Part shown: piece after piece, positions 339 to 58,937 of the stretch
Layout: each line of letters starts with the position of its first letter
Position numbering within the stretch: position 1 is the stretch's first letter
From: Trueperaceae bacterium
GTDB lineage: Bacteria; Deinococcota; Deinococci; Deinococcales; Trueperaceae
Reading direction: 5' to 3'
Assembly: GCA_965213925.1 (NCBI GenBank)
Contig: OZ243927.1
Coordinates: 3,232,001-3,296,000, forward strand
Length of the DNA: 64,000 nucleotides
Notes under the pieces: generated by a model
What the model was told of the DNA's origin: nothing
Seen by the model: the letters and a program-made list of their open reading frames with translations, nothing else
Database searches by the model: none
Program-made: the position numbers and the translations under genes

Positions 339-1229
339 TTATTGCGGAAAGTGCCGTCTATAGAGCATCTGCCGCGACTCCCCGGAGAGGTTGACGTAGA
401 GCTGCGTAGTTGTGGGCGAGGCATGATCAAGAATCGACTGCACGGCAGCGATAGGCGCGCCTTGGTTTAAGAGCAGCGTGGCTAGCGTATGGCGCAGCAC
501 GTGCGGCGTCACTTTCTCCTCTAAACCGCACCGCTTTGCTACGCGCTTGAAGATGCGCTGTATCTGCGAGGTGCTGAGACGTTGATGCTCCAAAGTCCCG
601 CTATGCTGACGTCTCCGTCGCTTCGTAGCGAACAGGGCGAGGCAGTTGTCTGAACGGCTGTCCAGATATCGTTTAAGCCACAGCGCCGCTTTCGCCCCGA
701 AGTACACTTCTCGCTCTTTGTTGCCCTTACCTAGCACAACGACGCTCCGGCGTGACCAGTCGAGGTCGATTCTGTCAAGTTGATGTATCTCGCTGACTCT
801 GCAACCCGTGGCGAAGAAAAACTCGATAAGGGCGTGCTCCAATAGATTCTCACAGGCGTCTCTGAGCAACTCGATCTCTTCTACCGAAAGCGCTTTCGGG
901 ATTCGTGCGGGTAGGCGCGGTTCTCGGAGTTTCAGCGCGGGGTTGCGCTCCAATATCTCCTCTTCATAGAGCCACTTGAAAAAGATTTTGAGGGCGCGGA
1001 CTTTGTTCGCTAAACTCGACGTTTGCAGATGTGTCAAGCTTGTGAGGTGAGCGCGCAGGTGCTCAAGCTTTACTGTCTCAACAGGGGTTTCGCCTCCAGC
1101 ATCCAACATCAAGCGCTTCAGATGCAGCTTGTACGAGTAGAGCGTCCTGTCGCTGTAACCGTCCAACTTCCTGGCTTTCAAATATGCCTGAATACAACTC
1201 GCTAAAGTGAGAACTTTTTGCTCGTCCAT
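339..1229 (-). CDS. Tyrosine recombinase/integrase (XerC/XerD-like)
   Basis: TGCRVSE, GKGNKER, HVLRH and TTQLY catalytic motifs with N-terminal SAM-like domain; ATG at 1229 follows a GGAGG RBS. Confidence 0.93.
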   Translation of the reverse strand: MDEQKVLTLASCIQAYLKARKLDGYSDRTLYSYKLHLKRLMLDAGGETPVETVKLEHLRAHLTSLTHLQTSSLANKVRALKIFFKWLYEEEILERNPALKLREPRLPARIPKALSVEEIELLRDACENLLEHALIEFFFATGCRVSEIHQLDRIDLDWSRRSVVVLGKGNKEREVYFGAKAALWLKRYLDSRSDNCLALFATKRRRRQHSGTLEHQRLSTSQIQRIFKRVAKRCGLEEKVTPHVLRHTLATLLLNQGAPIAAVQSILDHASPTTTQLYVNLSGESRQMLYRRHFPQ

Positions 1230-1407
1230 AAAAAACCTCCGAGCCGTAGTCTGCACGGAGGTTGACGTCAGCATGTTTTCGAGGGGTGATAGCAATGCGC
1301 CAGACGCGCGCGTTAATTGCACAATAGATCATCTTACAAGTTCGTCACAAAACCTTTTCTACTATTCAGTGCTGGCAACATAAAAAGCTGCTCTCCAAAT
1401 GTACGCG

Positions 1408-1652: not shown

Positions 1653-3848
1653 CTAAGGCGCTAGGCGCTTCTCTCGCAACCTAAGCACCGTTTCGACCTC
1701 CGGCTCCGCTGCGGCATCCCGAGCGAGCCGAACGCGGTAGTCGCCCTCAGCTACAGTCCAGCCGGGGGTATCCGGGTCGTAGGACGCCATCACGCGCAGC
1801 TCGTCGCAGATGATGCGCACCGTTGCCGACTGACCCGGCTCGAGCGCAACGCGCGCCCAGCCCGCGAGACGGAAGGTTGGCTCGTTCGCCCCAGCTGGCT
1901 CTACGGATGGCGGCGCGACGTACACCTGCGGTGTGTCGATGCCCGAATGCTTGCCCGCGTTGCTCACCGTCAGCGACGCCTCGATCAGCCCGTCGCCATT
2001 CACCGCAACGGTGACATTGCTGTAGTCAAAGTGCGTGTAGGATAGACCGAACCCGAATGGAAACCTCGCCGGTCGCCCCTCACGCGCGTGCCAACGGTAG
2101 CCGATATCCACGCCCTCGATGTCGTAGTCGACACCGACATAGTCGCCCTGGCGCGGCTGACCCGGGAAGGACGTTGTGTTTTCAGGAGAGCGCATCTCCG
2201 GGCGCGGCAGGTCTGCCTCACTGATCGGGAAGCTGACCGGCAGCCGACCCGAAGGCGTGACCTCTCCCGACAGCACATCAGCGACCGCCTGCGCCCCCGC
2301 AGTGCCGCCATACCACGCGGCTAGCACCGCTGACACGTCGTCCAACCAGGGCATTACCACTGCTCCAGGCGTTTCCAGAACCACCACCGTGCGAGGCACC
2401 CTCGCCGCTACCCCAGCGACCAAGTCATCTTGAGTTCCGTCCAAAGCGAGATCGGGGGCGTCCCAGCCTTCGGTAGCCCACTTCTCAGCGAGGACGACGG
2501 CGACGTCGTCCTCGCGCAGCGCCGTCAGGTCGTCGCCCAGGAACACGACTTCATTCTCGCTGAAGCGTTCTTTTATTGTATTGAGTGGTGAAGGTCCGTG
2601 GTAGATGCGCGGGAACTCCATCTGCGGAACGCGCATCCCCTCTCTCTTGGTGTGTTCGGGCGGCGTCACCGCCGAGCTTCCGCCACCCGAAAGCACTCCG
2701 AGGTCGGCATTCTTGCCGAGCACGGCGATACGTCCTTGCGGCGGGTTCAGCGGCAGGATACCGTCGTTTTTTAGCAGCACAAGCGACTGCTCAGCGACCC
2801 TCTGTGCGACCTCCAGGTGGCGTGGCAGCGGGGCGGGGCTCTGCAGCCGACGGCCCTCTAGCGCGCCGACGGAGTGCAGCGCAGCGAGGATGCGCGTCAC
2901 CATATCGTCCAGCCGCGCCTCGCTGACCCTACCCTCGGTCACCGCGCGCTTCAGCGGCTCGCCGAAAAAGTGCGCCGTGTCCAGGTCCCAACCCGACTGC
3001 CGGTCTAATCCGGCCCACGCTGCATGATCGGTTGAATGGGTCGCGCCCCAGTCCGACATGACGAAGCCCTTGAACTGCCAGTCGCCCTTGAGAACCGTAG
3101 TGAGCAGGAAATGACTTTCTGACGCGTAGACCTTGTTGACCATATTGTAGCCAGTCATGATCGAGCGCGGCTGACCGTGTTCGGTGGCGATTTGGAACGA
3201 GAGCAGGTCGGACTCGCGCAGCGCCTTTTCGCTGATGTCCGAGCTGACCATCACTCGTCCGGTCTCCTCGGGGTTGATGGCGAAGTGCTTGAGCGTCGAG
3301 AGTACCCCCTGCGACTGGATGCCTGCGACGGACGCCCCCGTGAGCAACCCGGTATGTAGCGGGTCCTCGCCCACATATTCAAAGATGCGCCCGCCGCGCG
3401 GCTCGCGGATTAGGTTCATGCCTCCGGCAAGCTGGACGGCAAAGCCCAGGTGCCGCGACTGAGCGCCGACAGCCTCGCCCACCGCGTGCGCTGCGTCACG
3501 GCAGAAGGTCGCGCCGAGGGCGATCAGCGAGGGGAAAGCGGTGACGTCCTCTTGACCACGGACGTTGTTGGGGTTGGTGACCCCCATGCTGGCGTCGCTC
3601 TCGTCCCACATGGGGATGCCTAAGCGAGGCACGCCGGGCGTGGCTGCAGCCGAGCCGTGCGCGCCTTCCGGCGCTCCATCCGCCGCCATCGGAGCCGACG
3701 CGAGCGCGACCTTTTCGTCCAGGGTCATCTGGGCGACCAGCGCTTTGGCTGCCGACCAGTCGTCCTGCCAGCCAGCCCACGGTCCGGATTCGGTGTGGAA
3801 ACGACAGGTTATCTCTGTAGTCATTATCTCCCCCGTTTCTCTTGCCAC
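1653..3848 (-). CDS. Glycoside hydrolase family 3 beta-glucosidase
   Basis: KHFAIN and FVMSDWGA (nucleophile Asp) motifs, PSGRLPVSFP, FPFGFGLSYT, FN3-like C-terminus. True start may be 3824. Confidence 0.93.
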   Translation of the reverse strand: MARETGEIMTTEITCRFHTESGPWAGWQDDWSAAKALVAQMTLDEKVALASAPMAADGAPEGAHGSAAATPGVPRLGIPMWDESDASMGVTNPNNVRGQEDVTAFPSLIALGATFCRDAAHAVGEAVGAQSRHLGFAVQLAGGMNLIREPRGGRIFEYVGEDPLHTGLLTGASVAGIQSQGVLSTLKHFAINPEETGRVMVSSDISEKALRESDLLSFQIATEHGQPRSIMTGYNMVNKVYASESHFLLTTVLKGDWQFKGFVMSDWGATHSTDHAAWAGLDRQSGWDLDTAHFFGEPLKRAVTEGRVSEARLDDMVTRILAALHSVGALEGRRLQSPAPLPRHLEVAQRVAEQSLVLLKNDGILPLNPPQGRIAVLGKNADLGVLSGGGSSAVTPPEHTKREGMRVPQMEFPRIYHGPSPLNTIKERFSENEVVFLGDDLTALREDDVAVVLAEKWATEGWDAPDLALDGTQDDLVAGVAARVPRTVVVLETPGAVVMPWLDDVSAVLAAWYGGTAGAQAVADVLSGEVTPSGRLPVSFPISEADLPRPEMRSPENTTSFPGQPRQGDYVGVDYDIEGVDIGYRWHAREGRPARFPFGFGLSYTHFDYSNVTVAVNGDGLIEASLTVSNAGKHSGIDTPQVYVAPPSVEPAGANEPTFRLAGWARVALEPGQSATVRIICDELRVMASYDPDTPGWTVAEGDYRVRLARDAAAEPEVETVLRLREKRLAP

Positions 3849-4192
3849 CTGATTCTAAAGGAGCACGGGTATAGAGCACCTATGCCGGTCATACAGGTAA
3901 CCTAGATAGGGGAAGGATCGGCACGCCGTCTGACCGTTTCGCAATCGGATGAGACCATTGTTGGTTCGTCCATTAAAAAGCGCTCACGGTAGGGAGGGCG
4001 GCGACGCCAAACTTACGCGGCGTGCGGTGGCGTCTTCTTCTGCCCCAAACGTAAGGGTGCTTGTGGTCATTCCAGTAGGCAGTGGCTCTTCGAATGGGCT
4101 CAACCATCTCGGTCCAGACCTCGAAGCGCCTGCCTTTGAGAGCTAAAGAGCGTAACGTCTTCCACCAGGGCTCGGTGAGGTTGAGATACCCC

Positions 4193-4256
4193 TAGGTGAT
4201 CGCCGCTAGGCGAATCCGGTCCTGTGCCCTGCGAAGCGGGTATTGTCGGTAACCTA
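4193..4256 (-). mobile_element. Micro-element E2 (64 bp insertion in transposase)
   Basis: AGGTTACCGACAAT...GGACC...GCGATCACCT splits the PKYA|GYLNL motif and shifts the frame. Confidence 0.75.
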
Positions 4257-4725
4257 GCGTACTTGGGCTGGAAGACGAACTCCCACCTGGGGTGAGCCAG
4301 ACTAAAAAGGAGCACGTCGTAAGAGCTGTGCATGTAGAGATTGTCGATGATGGCGTAGATGTGCTTGACCTCGGGCGGGACCCACTGCTCGACCTTTCCC
4401 AGAAACTCGGTATAGTGCCCGCCGATGCGGCGCGGGACCATCTCAGTGAATACTGCGCCTGAGGCGGGTTCTAATGCGCCGAAGACGAAACCACCTTTCG
4501 GGCGATGTGTATAGTCAAGCGCGACTTTCGCGCGTCCGGCGGGGGGTCCACGAATTTTGGTCAGCTCCTTACCTTCATATGTTCTTGAGGCGAGCGGTCC
4601 CATCTCGTCTATGCAGAGGACGACGTTGTTCTCTGGTGGGTCGGTGTAGAGCTGTAGGGTGGCACCCTTTTTTCAGCGAACTCGGGGTCCACCTTTTGTC
4701 CATACCACCCTCCTTGTTGTCGCCA

Positions 4726-4791
4726 AAGGTTACCGCCAACGGCGGCTAGCGGGAGCGGGACCACGCGACTTCGCTTTACGCGATCACCTGT
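4726..4791 (+). mobile_element. Micro-element E1 (66 bp in-frame insertion in transposase)
   Basis: AGGTTACCGCCAAC...GGACC...GCGATCACCT adds 22 foreign codons between EGLR and WRQQ. Confidence 0.75.
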
Positions 4792-5329
4792 CCTGAGCCC
4801 CTCGTTCCTGAAGATTTCGCTCATGCGACTGCGCCCCATCATGATGCCTTCCTCTTCGCTGAGATACGCTACCAGCCTATCTAAGGTCCAAGAGCCGAAA
4901 GGTAGTCCTAGCTCATCAGGTTTCGTTAAAGCCGTTTGAATAACAGTGCCGACATGCTCGCTTTTGTAGATGTGAGGTCGCCCGTGACGCGGGCTTTCTT
5001 CTAAACCAGGAATACCCAGCTTCGTGAAGCGGTTCACCCACTTGCGCACCGTCTGGTGGTGTAGCTCGAGCTTCTCGGCAACCTCGTGCACTGACAGCCC
5101 TAAGTTCGACTGCAAGACAATCCGCGCCCGACGCACTTTGCTCACACCCATCGTCCTCGAACGTTCCCACCTTTTAAGTTCTTGATACTCTTCTTCGGTT
5201 AGCCGACGAACACGGGCATACGGGCGCACGGCTCACCTCCACTAGAATTGAGAACTCTAGCTTAGTCCTGAGTCGAATTAACTGGATGAGCCAATAACTG
5301 TTTGCGTTGAGCGGTGCCCTAAGGCGCGC

Positions 5330-19703: not shown

Positions 19704-19835
19704 AGTAAGGTACTTGAAGCGAGAGCGCCGTAGCGTTCTGGCTTGCTTCGCACCGAGATGCTTAGAAGAAGTAACGAGGACTGAGTGCTGAGGTGAAAGT
19801 GAAAATCTTAAACTCAGCGCTCGAGCCTCACGACA

Positions 19836-21052: not shown

Positions 21053-21184
21053 TGTCACCCTGAGCCGAAGGCGTAAGGGTCTCGTTTCGCAATCTCCGAC
21101 AGTGGAGAAGGCAAATGCAGAAATTCTTTCATCAGGCGAAGCCAATCCTGTAAAGGGCTCCACTTCGTTCCGTTCAGAATGACA
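21053..21184 (+). repeat. TGTCA...TGACA palindromic intergenic repeat, copy 1
   Basis: TGTCACCCTGAGCCGAAGGCG...TTCAGAATGACA; three more copies in the window. Confidence 0.85.
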
Positions 21185-21196
21185 CAGCGGTCATAC

Positions 21197-29327: not shown

Positions 29328-29702
29328 AGTAGGACATACAGATCGACTTTCGTATTCCACATTTCTTTGCGTCTCGCGTCGCCCAAATCCTAATATACGG
29401 TAGTGGTTTCAAGTCCAATGCTGCCATGTGCTCCTTATGCTATCTCTAAAGCAATTCGCATAAACACTGAGCTTGAGTCACGTAAGTATCATTCTCGAAT
29501 GTGCGTGCTCGTCAATGTTGTCTCTTCCCGGATTGGCTCAAACCAAATGATACTTGCTATACGTAATGTACAAGGTTGAAACCCCTTGCTTTGACATCAG
29601 CATCATTCCAGATAAAGCCACTACCATGTAGACGTCATACGGACGAGCCGCTCCGTGTACGCCGAACGCATAGCGCTAGATTTGCGGTGCTAAACTCTCT
29701 TT

Positions 29703-34497: not shown

Positions 34498-34514
34498 CCT
34501 CACTCCAGACTAAG

Positions 34515-34538
34515 AACAAGGGGTTGCAACCCCTTGTT
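34515..34538. repeat. REP-like 24 bp perfect palindrome
   Basis: AACAAGGGGTTGCAACCCCTTGTT; identical copy at 50213-50236, variants at 57628 and 29571. Confidence 0.85.
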
Positions 34539-34562
34539 GATTGGATTTCGGAACTATACCAA

Positions 34563-36379: not shown

Positions 36380-36507
36380 TGTCACCCTGAACGAATGTGA
36401 AGGGTCTCGTTTAGCTACGCTAAAACTTCGTAACTTGCGCTTTTCTGTTAGAGGAGTCAGCAAGGTCAGAGATTCTTCACTCCGCTAGGGCTCCGTTCAG
36501 AATGACA
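36380..36507 (+). repeat. TGTCA...TGACA palindromic repeat, copy 2
   Basis: Highly similar to 54199-54327. Confidence 0.85.
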
Positions 36508-36561
36508 TATCCGTTTATAGGCAGACACCGATACCCCGCTGACAACGCTGTTCGCTCTCGC

Positions 36562-39797: not shown

Positions 39798-39913
39798 TCG
39801 GTCTCCAATTTAATAAAGAAGCAATGAGTTGAAAGCAATCCAGTCAAGCTGGTGGCTTTAGCTTCCGCAGGAACGAACGGTGAGCAATGAGTCTAAAGGT
39901 TTTCACTTTCAAC

Positions 39914-40348
39914 TCACTGCTCGTTGCTCATTGCTCCTTCTAACAACTCAAAGTCCTCAAAGTCGAACCCCGGCACGACGACGCACGACACCAGCGCGTA
40001 GCCCTCGGCATCTCCCAGCGGCTCCGCCTCCTGCACGTAACCTCCTGGCACGACGACCTGCGGCCGTTCTAAACCGAGCGTTACGACCTCTTGCGCGCCG
40101 TCCGGTGAGGTCAGCGTCAGGTTGATGGGGTCGCCCCGGTGAAAGAGCCACAGCTCGTCCGAGCGGACGCGGTGGGGGCGGCTCCGTTCTCCTGCGGGGA
40201 GCAAGAAGAGGATGGCGGTGCCGGCGGCACGTGTACTCGGATAGCCCTCTGGCTCGACTTCGTGCGGTGAGCGCCAGGTTTCGCGGTAGTAGCCGCCTTC
40301 GGGGTGGGGTTTGAGGTCTAGCGCTTCGATGAGGTCTTGGGCGCTCAC
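39914..40348 (-). CDS. Cupin domain protein (DUF985/Cupin_5)
   Basis: LKPHPEGGYYRET, HRVRSDELWLFH, CVVVPGFDFEDF. Confidence 0.9.
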   Translation of the reverse strand: MSAQDLIEALDLKPHPEGGYYRETWRSPHEVEPEGYPSTRAAGTAILFLLPAGERSRPHRVRSDELWLFHRGDPINLTLTSPDGAQEVVTLGLERPQVVVPGGYVQEAEPLGDAEGYALVSCVVVPGFDFEDFELLEGAMSNEQ

Positions 40349-40375: not shown

Positions 40376-41662
40376 TCAGTTGAACCAGAGCGCGAAATTG
40401 AGGAAGTTGCCGCCAAAAAGTCCTTGCAAGCGCCGCCAGGTATCGGCGCTACTGAGTGGGCCCTCTTCGAGGTAGGGCGTCGCCGCGCTCCCTTGAAACC
40501 AGAGCAGGGCGTCAAAGGTTCGCGGCTCCATGAACACGCGGCGCACGTTGACGCCGCGCCCATCTTGCACGCGCGGATGCGGAATCAGTAGGTCACCCGC
40601 AAGGACGGCGTCCGCCTCGTCCAAAAAGGTTAGCCAAGCCTCTATCTGCACTTCAGTGAGGCGCACACCTATCACACTACTCTGAGTGGCGTTCGGTATC
40701 CACTCGTGTTCGTCGTCGGTTTCGGCGCGTACCGCGTCCCACGAGCGTCGGCTCTCTAAGAGGACGGTCTCAAAACGTTCCAATGCCCTTTCCAAGCGCT
40801 CAGGTTCAGTTGGCTCGAGGTTCAGCAGATGGATAAAGGCGATGAGGTCAGCGATGAGCGTGACGTCGAACATGCCCTCGGGCTCACCCGTGCGACTCAA
40901 AAACTCATGCGGCGTCTGCACCCGTTCGTAGGTCAGATGCGCCGTGCGTTCGAACAGCTCACGGCTGTCGTGAGCTAGATAGATGTCTGTCAGGGCGCTC
41001 AGAAGTTCGGCGTAACCTCGGAACCAGTGAACATCACCACGGTCAAATGCGGTGAGGAGGTCCCCTTCTCCGGGCAGAACCTGGTTGGGCTGACCAAAAC
41101 GGGCAAAAAGCTGTTGAAGACTTTCATCCTCACGGGCGTCGCCGTCGCCATTAAAGTCCAGCCGGATGCGCCCGACAGGTAGCTCGAGCTTGACCTCACC
41201 GTCCTTAACTTCACCGTCCTTAACTTCACCGTCCTTAACTTCACTGTCTTGAACCTCAGCGTCACCGAGAAAATCCTCGAGCGCCGCGAAGGTTGCACTC
41301 GCTTCGCTCAAGTCTGCTAGAAAGGTTTCTAAAATAGCGCGTAAGTTCTCATATGCGATTTCACGCGCGTCACCATCCGCCGCCGAGGGAAACTGAAAGG
41401 GTAAAAAGGTGACGGCCCGGTCATCGGTGCGTAAGCCGTAGCGAGCGAAGGACTGAGACGCGCCCTCGAACGCGCCAAGAAACTGGACGATGCCCAAGCT
41501 AAACTGCGCTTCGGCGTCTTCCGGCTGAGAGCCTAGTCTCTCCAGAAGCGCAGTTTCAGCCTCGAGCAGACGCCCCGTCTCCAGGTAGGGCACAACGAGC
41601 GGCTGAGCAGCTCCAAAACCCGCCAGCCAGAACCAACACAGTATCAGCATAGAAGTGCGCAA
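40376..41662 (-). CDS. Hypothetical secreted protein with EVKDG tandem repeat
   Basis: Signal peptide, TPR-like start, LDFNGDG motif, C-terminal ..ALWFN. Confidence 0.7.
   Translation of the reverse strand: MRTSMLILCWFWLAGFGAAQPLVVPYLETGRLLEAETALLERLGSQPEDAEAQFSLGIVQFLGAFEGASQSFARYGLRTDDRAVTFLPFQFPSAADGDAREIAYENLRAILETFLADLSEASATFAALEDFLGDAEVQDSEVKDGEVKDGEVKDGEVKLELPVGRIRLDFNGDGDAREDESLQQLFARFGQPNQVLPGEGDLLTAFDRGDVHWFRGYAELLSALTDIYLAHDSRELFERTAHLTYERVQTPHEFLSRTGEPEGMFDVTLIADLIAFIHLLNLEPTEPERLERALERFETVLLESRRSWDAVRAETDDEHEWIPNATQSSVIGVRLTEVQIEAWLTFLDEADAVLAGDLLIPHPRVQDGRGVNVRRVFMEPRTFDALLWFQGSAATPYLEEGPLSSADTWRRLQGLFGGNFLNFALWFN
41196..41255. repeat. In-frame 15 bp tandem repeat
   Basis: TCACCGTCCTTAACT x3 plus one degenerate unit. 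Confidence 0.9.
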
Positions 41663-50161: not shown

Positions 50162-50212
50162 GTAGAGAAGAGAGAAGGGTAGTGGCTTTCTCTGGGATGC
50201 TCACTGAATATG

Positions 50213-50236
50213 AACAAGGGGTTGCAACCCCTTGTT
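50213..50236. repeat. REP-like 24 bp palindrome
   Basis: Identical to 34515-34538. Confidence 0.85.
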
Positions 50237-54198: not shown

Positions 54199-54327
54199 TG
54201 TCACCCTGAGCCGAAGGCGTGAGGGTCTCGTTTAGCTACGCTAAAACTTTGTGACTCGCAATCTCTGCAAGAGGAGTCAGCAAGGTCAGAGATTCTTACG
54301 CTCCACTGCGTTCCGCTCAGAATGACA
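54199..54327 (+). repeat. TGTCA...TGACA palindromic repeat, copy 3
   Basis: TGTCACCCTGAGCCGAAGGCG...GCTCAGAATGACA. Confidence 0.85.
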
Positions 54328-54359
54328 TCACTCTTTAATTAGCAGTGTACTGACGAACT

Positions 54360-57465: not shown

Positions 57466-57888
57466 AGTTGCTCCTCCTTAGAGCTGCCCCGCCCCGATAC
57501 CTATTTTGACTGACGCTTTGATTATGACCTAAATATGTAACGAATGTAAACCGCCCGCTCGAGAAGAGGTCGCGCGAAACGTCAGTGGAGTGGTGGGATA
57601 GGAAGTGCAGAAGAGAGAATGTCAATGCAAGGGGTTTCAACCCCTTGTTCATCACGTAGATATAGTAGAGAGATAGCAACAGGGAGCACACGGCAGCGTT
57701 CGACTCAGAACCACCACCCACTCCTTTTTAGAATTCTGTCTTCTCGGGGTCGATCAGCTTGTCCAGACCTCCCTGAAGGTTACGGAGCTTGAACATGACA
57801 CGCTCTGTTCTACCCCCCACAGTTTGCCACCACAAGACTTACGCTATACTGATTGGGCACAAACGTATAGAAATGGAGAGATGATCAA

Positions 57889-58737: not shown

Positions 58738-58812
58738 TCAAACTGGGTTACGGGCGAGATTGGATTTTGAATTCGGGTGTAGTACGCTGTTGATTAAGTT
58801 CTGCAACACTGT

Positions 58813-58937
58813 TGTCACCCCGAGCCCAGTCGAGTGGTCTCGCCTTGCATTCTCTCACAGGGAAGAAGGCGGTCAGAGATTCTTTCTCTCCACAGCCTGC
58901 CCTGAGCAAGGTCGAATGGGTTACGCTCAGAATGACA
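58813..58937 (+). repeat. TGTCA...TGACA palindromic repeat, copy 4 (divergent)
   Basis: TGTCACCCCGAGC...GGTCAGAGATTCTT...GCTCAGAATGACA. Confidence 0.75.

Follow-up and report, generated by a model that had tools for sequence, protein, structure and literature searches.

The question raised by this locus is how a single transposase gene came to hold two small, related segments of DNA, here called E1 and E2, and what kind of element these segments are. The gene belongs to an insertion sequence (IS) of the IS630 family and lies in a 64,000-nucleotide stretch, referred to below as the window, of contig OZ243927.1 (assembly GCA_965213925.1, positions 3,232,001 to 3,296,000, forward strand) from a Trueperaceae bacterium. 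Its ribosomal protein L1 shares 81% identity with the Truepera radiovictrix counterpart, and the nearest named relatives are metagenome-assembled genomes of Trueperaceae and Deinococcota. Comparison with related transposases indicates that each segment was inserted at the DNA level, no informative homolog having it. The explanation we favor, and to which we give roughly an even chance, is that E1 and E2 both belong to a family of very small, non-autonomous elements that are moved in trans and leave no target-site duplication (TSD). The two segments are as follows.

4727-4789, plus strand: E1 core, 63 nt, AGGTTACCGCCAAC-N17-GGACC-N17-GCGATCACCT
4194-4255, minus strand: E2 core, 62 nt, AGGTTACCGACAAT-N19-GGACC-N14-GCGATCACCT

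These sequences and coordinates agree exactly with those given in a preliminary description of this DNA. Both elements start with AGGTTACCGnCAA and end with GCGATCACCT; their left termini are identical at 12 of 14 nt and their right termini at 10 of 10. By reading, the ends form an imperfect 10-bp inverted repeat (AGGTTACCGC / AGGTGATCGC) that matches at 8 of 10 positions, as first described. The two elements are in opposite orientation, and their outer ends (4194-4203 and 4780-4789) form a perfect 10-bp inverted repeat. The two-ended pattern has two matches in the window and none in 100 dinucleotide-preserving shuffles, while each end motif taken singly occurs at chance frequency. The two-element pattern is non-random and is not a product of chance.

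The transposase is encoded by two reading frames, orfA, which specifies helix-turn-helix (HTH) domains, and orfB, which specifies the DDE domain. E1 is read through in frame. Its net insertion is 66 nt (4726-4791, comprising A, the core, and GT), or 22 aa, and adds 22 residues (TGDRVKRSRVVPLPLAAVGGNL) to the HTH-DDE linker of the transposase. These residues are absent from six of six orfA homologs, as judged by tblastn and a seven-sequence alignment in which they face an exact 22-column gap. The six N-terminal-domain homologs, among them the orfA product of Deinococcus grandis (60% identical), pass from EGL[RK] straight to the next residue, which is the start of WR in five. The net insertion at E2 is 64 nt (4192-4255, comprising the core and AG, or T, the core, and A). 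In P0001, the closest full-length relative, PKYA (4256) is followed directly by GYLNL (4191) with no residue lost. P0141 (91% identical) and P0142 (84%) are intact at the E2 site and read FQPKYAGYLNL, and P0143 (93%) is frameshifted upstream, yet is contiguous across the site in another frame (by reading). Among the matches listed, 132 of 139 orfB homologs are ungapped across the E2 site; the 139, which include the window's own open reading frame (ORF), consist of 19 proteins of at least 245 aa and 120 listed of 795 proteins of 76-244 aa. The seven exceptions are the window ORF, P0143, P0251 (broken further downstream), and P0154, P0172, P0219 and P0238, which stop at or before the site. No E-like insertion was found in other homologs among the 139 listed proteins.

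The preliminary description had read E1 and E2 as DNA-level insertions in opposite orientation whose removal (66 and 64 nt) restores the transposase. The homologs bear this out and fix both junctions, and none of the informative ones is an intact transposase carrying these segments, which had been named as counter-evidence. Several metagenomic IS630 orfB fragments (P0154, P0219, P0238, P0242 and P0192) end near the E2 site (…FVFQ / …FQPT / …TYAGI). They come from different lineages, and their endpoints are scattered in a highly conserved stretch; to judge from their sequences, these endpoints are most likely contig ends and not insertions.

With the junctions set by the homologs, no TSD compatible with the reading frame is present at E1 or E2. 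The flanks of the net insertions are CAA/GTC and GCT/AGG, and the junction bases outside the cores are unequal, 1+2 at E1 and 0+2 or 1+1 at E2. The earlier statement that no TSD restores the frame therefore holds, the 66 and 64 extra nt leaving no duplication that fits.

The constant ends enclose interiors of about 40 nt that appear near-random with respect to each other. Hand counting of a one-gap MAFFT alignment gave 14 of 40 identical columns; the gapped alignment is barely above shuffles (p = 0.033), and alignment to the reverse complement gave p = 0.61. A common central GGACC, reported previously, is indeed present in both copies, but it is offset by 2 nt between them and is not significant by a rough estimate that was not computed. 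The small hairpins ascribed to the variable arms fared similarly. A right-end hairpin, TCGC(C)-loop-(G)GCGA, is predicted before the terminal TCACCT in both copies and a left hairpin in E1 alone, but no strand of either element, folded as DNA or RNA, is better than shuffles (z from -0.12 to -0.96). Rfam gave no match at E <= 10 over 4150-4850, and at the gathering threshold the whole window yielded only four tRNAs. A promoter and terminator scan placed no site overlapping E1 or E2 (coordinates compared by hand).

No other full copy had been noted in the 64 kb, and this was confirmed. Allowing at most one mismatch per end, E1 and E2 are the only matches in the window (shuffle mean 0.1). At two mismatches per end there are 22 matches, against a mean of 9.45 and a maximum of 16 in 20 mononucleotide shuffles; these include E1, E2, and E1 again on the opposite strand, and the rest are unlike the elements. 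An nhmmer profile built from E1 and E2 recovered just these two (E = 2e-13 and 2e-12), the next match having E = 2.5. A candidate third copy at 3806-3903 on the minus strand (98 nt, with end mismatches of 1 and 2) was rejected as within chance expectation; its 3' part coincides with the start of the GH3 gene.

Searches were extended beyond the window. The pattern search that the preliminary description had proposed was run with exact ends, allowing no mismatches, over 185,579 species represented by one genome each, and gave only chance-level results. Its three matches are in metagenome-assembled genomes (MAGs) of Noviherbaspirillum, Oceanospirillum and Acidimicrobiia; these MAGs are unrelated, and the matches are apparently coding (by reading, without ORF analysis) and all lack the GGACC center. 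They are read as chance, about 1.7 having been estimated beforehand. The scan did not recover E1 and E2 themselves, which suggests that the source genome is outside that collection. A blastn search of both elements against 72,556 plasmid and 50,697 phage records gave just fragments at E >= 5, and literature searches found no description of elements like E1 and E2. A long, enzyme-encoding version with the same ends had been suggested as something to look for; no such version is present in the 64-kb window.

The element that received the two insertions is organized as listed here, where TIR stands for terminal inverted repeat.

3961-5294, minus strand: host IS630-family element, 1334 bp (1204 bp without E1 and E2)
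5278-5294, minus strand: left TIR of the IS, TTGGCTCATCCAGTTAA
4609-5229, minus strand: orfA (HTH domains), with E1 inside it in frame and an out-of-frame tail, ...TTSSSA
4656-4673, minus strand: orfA-to-orfB -1 frame-change site, an A6G run (4667-4673) followed by a 5-bp hairpin
4256-4672, minus strand: first part of orfB (DDE domain), to PKYA
3973-4191, minus strand: last part of orfB (GYLNLTEPWW... to the stop codon), put in a different frame by E2
3961-3976, plus strand: right TIR of the IS, TTGGTTCGTCCATTAA, overlapping the transposase stop codon (3973-3975)

NCBIfam NF033545 matches both transposase pieces, and Pfam HTH domains match the N-terminal part. IS630 elements are flanked by TA and are about 1.1-1.2 kb long. 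The host has the transposase, the TIRs and the length of this family, and TA at one end only (5295-5296), the other flank being TG (3959-3960). Its boundaries were set against a relative on the D. grandis plasmid pDEGR-2, whose TIRs read TA followed by [A/G]TGGTTCATCCGCTAA. The inverted-repeat alignment of the host TIRs has a score of 21 (shuffle p = 0.036) and agrees with the D. grandis TIR. Boundaries of 3909-5242, which came from an alignment with a score of 23, were displaced by this comparison as wrong.

The -1 frame change between orfA and orfB is conserved in D. grandis and hence is not damage. Both the CAAAAAAGGGG motif and the two-ORF layout recur in the D. grandis copy (frame-change site at L004:1130-1141), whose orfA tail (...TTASSSA) parallels that of the host, and in the protein database orfB-sized proteins (76-244 aa) number 795, versus 19 fused forms of at least 245 aa. 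The frame change is a normal and probably programmed feature of this IS630 subgroup. In the zero frame the codons at the A6G run are GAA AAA AGG, which do not fit the register of the classical A_AAA_AAG heptamer; slippage of a single tRNA ahead of the rare AGG codon, or slippage during transcription, seems the likelier mechanism.

With E1, E2 and the conserved A6G shift set aside, nothing interrupts the transposase reading frames from one end of the gene to the other. The earlier statement that the transposase is otherwise undamaged thus stands as regards open frames, but it has to allow for the -1 change at A6G that the subgroup conserves. E2 shifts the frame 7 codons upstream of what we take, from the motif and spacing of the family, to be the catalytic Glu of the DD35E triad. 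Since E2 parts the second Asp of the triad from this Glu and shifts the frame, this copy of the IS cannot make transposase. E1 only lengthens the linker by 22 residues.

Immediately beside the right end of the IS is a solo IS630-type TIR (AATGGTCTCATCCG, 3945-3959, minus strand), oriented like the left TIR and identical to the left TIR of D. grandis at 13 of 14 positions. It is probably what is left of another IS630 copy, or of a miniature inverted-repeat transposable element (MITE) derived from IS630, in the 110 bp gap between the IS and the GH3 gene. The same gap contains CTAGGTTACC (3896-3905), which equals the left junction of E2 over 10 nt; this is within chance.

A scan of 47 proteins encoded in the window turned up only two with mobile-DNA functions, the IS630 transposase and a tyrosine recombinase.

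339-1322, minus strand: tyrosine recombinase, XerC/XerD-like, below curated cut-offs

The recombinase scores 111 bits with the integron-integrase model (cut-off 265) and 24 bits (E = 3e-5) with invertase models (cut-off 221). The preliminary description had raised, as speculation, a link between the elements and a tyrosine recombinase about 3 kb away; nothing ties this protein to them. The recombinase gene adjoins one for an Xre/ParS-type antitoxin (1-285) that is truncated by the window, and an integrated element may have its edge in 1-1322, at the window's left end.

The explanation that we favor starts from the ends. Only these are conserved between E1 and E2, which suggests that the ends are what a protein recognizes. 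Under this model, the protein would bind the ends, and the elements, being non-autonomous, would be moved in trans by a recombinase or transposase encoded outside the window. E1 and E2 would represent two separate insertions from a non-coding family with a core of 62-63 bp and a net length of 64-66 bp, and the chemistry would be other than the TA-duplicating IS630 type. If the elements are mobile, the lack of a TSD points to a mobilizing enzyme other than the common DDE transposases. The IS carries no other disabling mutation, which argues that the insertions are too recent for the interiors to have grown apart afterwards; E1 and E2 would already have differed at the time of insertion. Recent insertions of such different copies imply an origin from family members that had already diverged, and hence further copies somewhere. 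The divergence of E1 and E2 also argues for two events rather than a local duplication. The window contains, in addition, an intergenic repeat family of four copies whose inverted ends are conserved and whose internal blocks are optional, so small end-conserved repeats are carried by this genome.

Several observations weigh against this explanation. The mobility of E1 and E2 is itself inferred from sequence. There are just two copies and none in the other 62.7 kb of the window, and none of the three matches across the 185,579 species genomes looks like the elements. A mobile family normally has more copies and, if it is a classical MITE, a TSD. The flanking bases beyond the cores, 3 at E1 and 2 at E2, are not the same in the two copies and are left unaccounted for, and the window holds no parent element or candidate enzyme. 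Lastly, the ends are unlike IS630-clade TIRs above chance. A match to a known IS had been named as a possible refutation of a novel family; compared with five IS630-clade TIRs, the ends of E1 and E2 are no closer than shuffled ends (p = 0.10-0.45).

If mobile, E1 and E2 would be among the shortest inverted-repeat-ended elements in bacteria, and their constant ends and unconstrained interiors would define a minimal recognition signal for the enzyme. Two hits in one IS, if borne out genome-wide, would be a case of mobile DNA preying on mobile DNA. For now, the pair is a well-documented curiosity that inactivates one IS630 copy.

Among known kinds of element, E1 and E2 would, by analogy, work most like MITEs. 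The likeness lies in their small size, non-coding nature, TIRs, location within genes or mobile elements, and presumed movement in trans. At 62-63 bp they are non-coding (E1 is merely read through in the host ORF), and their TIRs are short and imperfect. They lack the TSD of a MITE and, as far as the five IS630-clade TIRs go, the ends of an autonomous IS; as for dispersed copies, the 64-kb window holds these two and no others. Bacterial MITEs include Correia elements and RUP. QMITE1 (300-400 bp, with 2-3-nt direct repeats) and QMITE2 (150-190 bp, with 7-11-nt direct repeats) of Coxiella burnetii are further examples (PMC5896051). Compared with these QMITEs, E1 and E2 are much shorter, have no direct repeats, have almost unrelated interiors, number two copies, and have no parent IS.

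The small noncoding repeats (SNRs) of Deinococcus radiodurans, a member of the same phylum, were reportedly first described by Makarova in 1999. They are mosaic, and number 295 copies in at least 9 types (PMC1978522). As portrayed there, they resemble E1 and E2 in that conserved segments alternate with variable or optional ones, and differ in being described as noncoding repeats, not as gene insertions; the comparison is with their description only. Together with these SNRs, the four-copy family makes it plausible, by analogy, that a small end-defined family exists in this lineage.

Two further kinds of small element move without TSDs. REP/REPIN sequences and IS200/IS605 derivatives need conserved hairpins and a constant flanking target. 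REP/REPIN are moved by RAYT; palindrome-associated elements derived from IS200/IS605 are taken together with them here (for this group, see PMC3116915). E1 and E2 share with both the missing TSD and the very small size. A right-end hairpin is predicted in both copies, but they fold no better than shuffles, and the left hairpin is present in E1 alone. Their left flanks (...GCCAA and ...ACGCT; in the reverse orientation ...AGGAC and ...CCCCT) differ, CCAA versus CGCT, and thus give no constant target tetranucleotide. The 47 window proteins scanned include no Y1 (HUH) transposase or RAYT. The attC sites of integrons ('59-base elements') are handled by a tyrosine recombinase without TSD and have the core sites RYYYAAC and GTTRRRY. 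Like E1 and E2, they are about 60 bp long with conserved, imperfectly inverted ends and a variable center. By reading, the ends of E1 and E2 lack RYYYAAC and GTTRRRY; there is no cassette array, and the recombinase falls at 111 bits versus the 265 of the integrase model.

Other explanations differ in how they account for the junctions. The IS630 family classically inserts into CTAG with duplication of TA, and E2 reads GC-TA-GGTTACC...GATCACC-TA-GGGG, that is, C-TA...TA-G. The true elements could accordingly be IS630-derived MITEs, GGTTACC...GATCACC, inserted into TA (CTAG) targets between duplicated TAs, and the host IS and the neighboring solo TIR show that IS630 activity has occurred here. 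The gene itself decides against this: removal of such an element with one TA takes 62 nt out of E2 and leaves the gene 2 nt off frame, where the homologs need 64, and E1 is flanked by AA and TG, not by TA on both sides. The model also leaves an extra codon at E1 that is absent in six of six homologs, and the ends do not resemble the five IS630-clade TIRs (p = 0.10-0.45). On these grounds, we consider it quite unlikely. Somewhat less so, yet still unlikely, is that repair of breaks in the IS copied or ligated short pieces of a repeated donor locus. Such templated or captured DNA accounts for the missing TSD and the unequal junction bases (1+2; 0+2 or 1+1), and the window contains PolX and DinB-family genes in an organism whose lineage is radiation- and desiccation-resistant. 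Between the left end of E1 and the sequence directly to its left, 9 of 11 positions agree (GTTGTCGCCAA versus GTTACCGCCAA, by reading), a likeness that is not significant after multiple testing (p ~0.1, our own estimate, not computed). Against repair stand the lack of a donor sequence in the window and the need for two independent events to have produced identical 13-nt and 10-nt boundaries, which points to a defined unit and not random filler. An assembly or sequencing artefact has nothing positive in its favor and is scarcely credible: the segments differ from each other, match no sequencing adapter known to us, and are placed exactly by codon in a gene that is otherwise intact, within a 4.58 Mb contig.

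The remaining explanations turn on where the elements lie. Both copies are within 600 bp of each other in one IS of 1.2 kb that makes up 1.9% of the window, for which p = 3.6e-4 if all positions are equal targets, or about 0.011 if a 60-bp insertion is tolerated only in the IS and the roughly 10 kb outside long ORFs (a crude, greedy ORF set). The copies are diverged and hence represent two events. From this location, which is suggestive though n = 2 and the case was picked post hoc, the preliminary description had proposed that the elements prefer, or are guided to, mobile DNA, perhaps as a system inactivating mobile genetic elements. A hyperparasite of ISs, or a guided system of that kind homing into transposase genes, perhaps by means of the variable arms, is in our view very unlikely. 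Nested insertions in dispensable mobile DNA are common, and a dead or dispensable IS is among the few places where an insertion is neutral. The arms show no complementarity or identity to the 60-nt flanks beyond shuffles (best p = 0.03-0.05 of 8 tests), E1 and E2 match nothing in the rest of the window above the score of shuffled elements, and the two target sites have no common motif (by reading). With no match of the arms to flanks, window, plasmids or phages, nothing suggests a guide, and matches of the arms to other loci, a check that had been proposed, were likewise absent there. No insertion occurs at the E2 site in the 132 orfB homologs that span it, the window encodes no associated enzyme, and the anti-mobile-element reading is left with no evidence behind it. 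A new class of about 62-bp elements without TSDs, having ends of 10-13 nt, free interiors and a preference for IS630 transposase genes, in effect a transposon parasite of which two diverged members hit one 1.2-kb IS independently, is likewise quite unlikely. It is highly improbable that E1 and E2 are inverted sites for a site-specific recombinase, such as the Xer-like protein at 339-1322, that bracket an invertible 471-bp transposase switch. They are mutually inverted, their outer ends form the perfect 10-bp inverted repeat, and the recombinase gene is 2.9 kb away, but the segment that they bracket is colinear and correctly oriented, and the gene is broken by the sites themselves. Furthermore, no homolog has such sites, the recombinase is XerC/XerD-like and not an invertase (24 bits versus 221), and the arms have no extended common core beyond 10-13 nt.

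Other repeats are present in the window. The four-copy intergenic family lies on the plus strand at approximately 21053-21194, 36382-36517, 54199-54337 and 58812-58937. It has inverted ends, TGTCACCCTGAGC...GCTCAGAATGACA, and a mosaic interior in which a 23-nt block is restricted to the copies at 36 and 54 kb and a block of about 28 nt to those at 21 and 58 kb; the family is similar to a MITE or to the mosaic SNRs of Deinococcus. The perfect palindrome AACAAGGGGTTGCAACCCCTTGTT is found at four intergenic places (29574-29597, 34508-34541, 50206-50236 and 57619-57652) and may represent a family of terminator-like or REP-like hairpins. A 15-nt unit, CTTAACTTCACCGTC, is repeated about five times in tandem at 41189-41263, within an ORF of 428 aa (40376-41662) that has no Pfam match; the array would encode a pentapeptide repeat. 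Two AT-rich 48-nt segments 20 kb apart (19762-19809 and 39896-39943) form an inverted pair that is 77% complementary, and may be another dispersed intergenic repeat.

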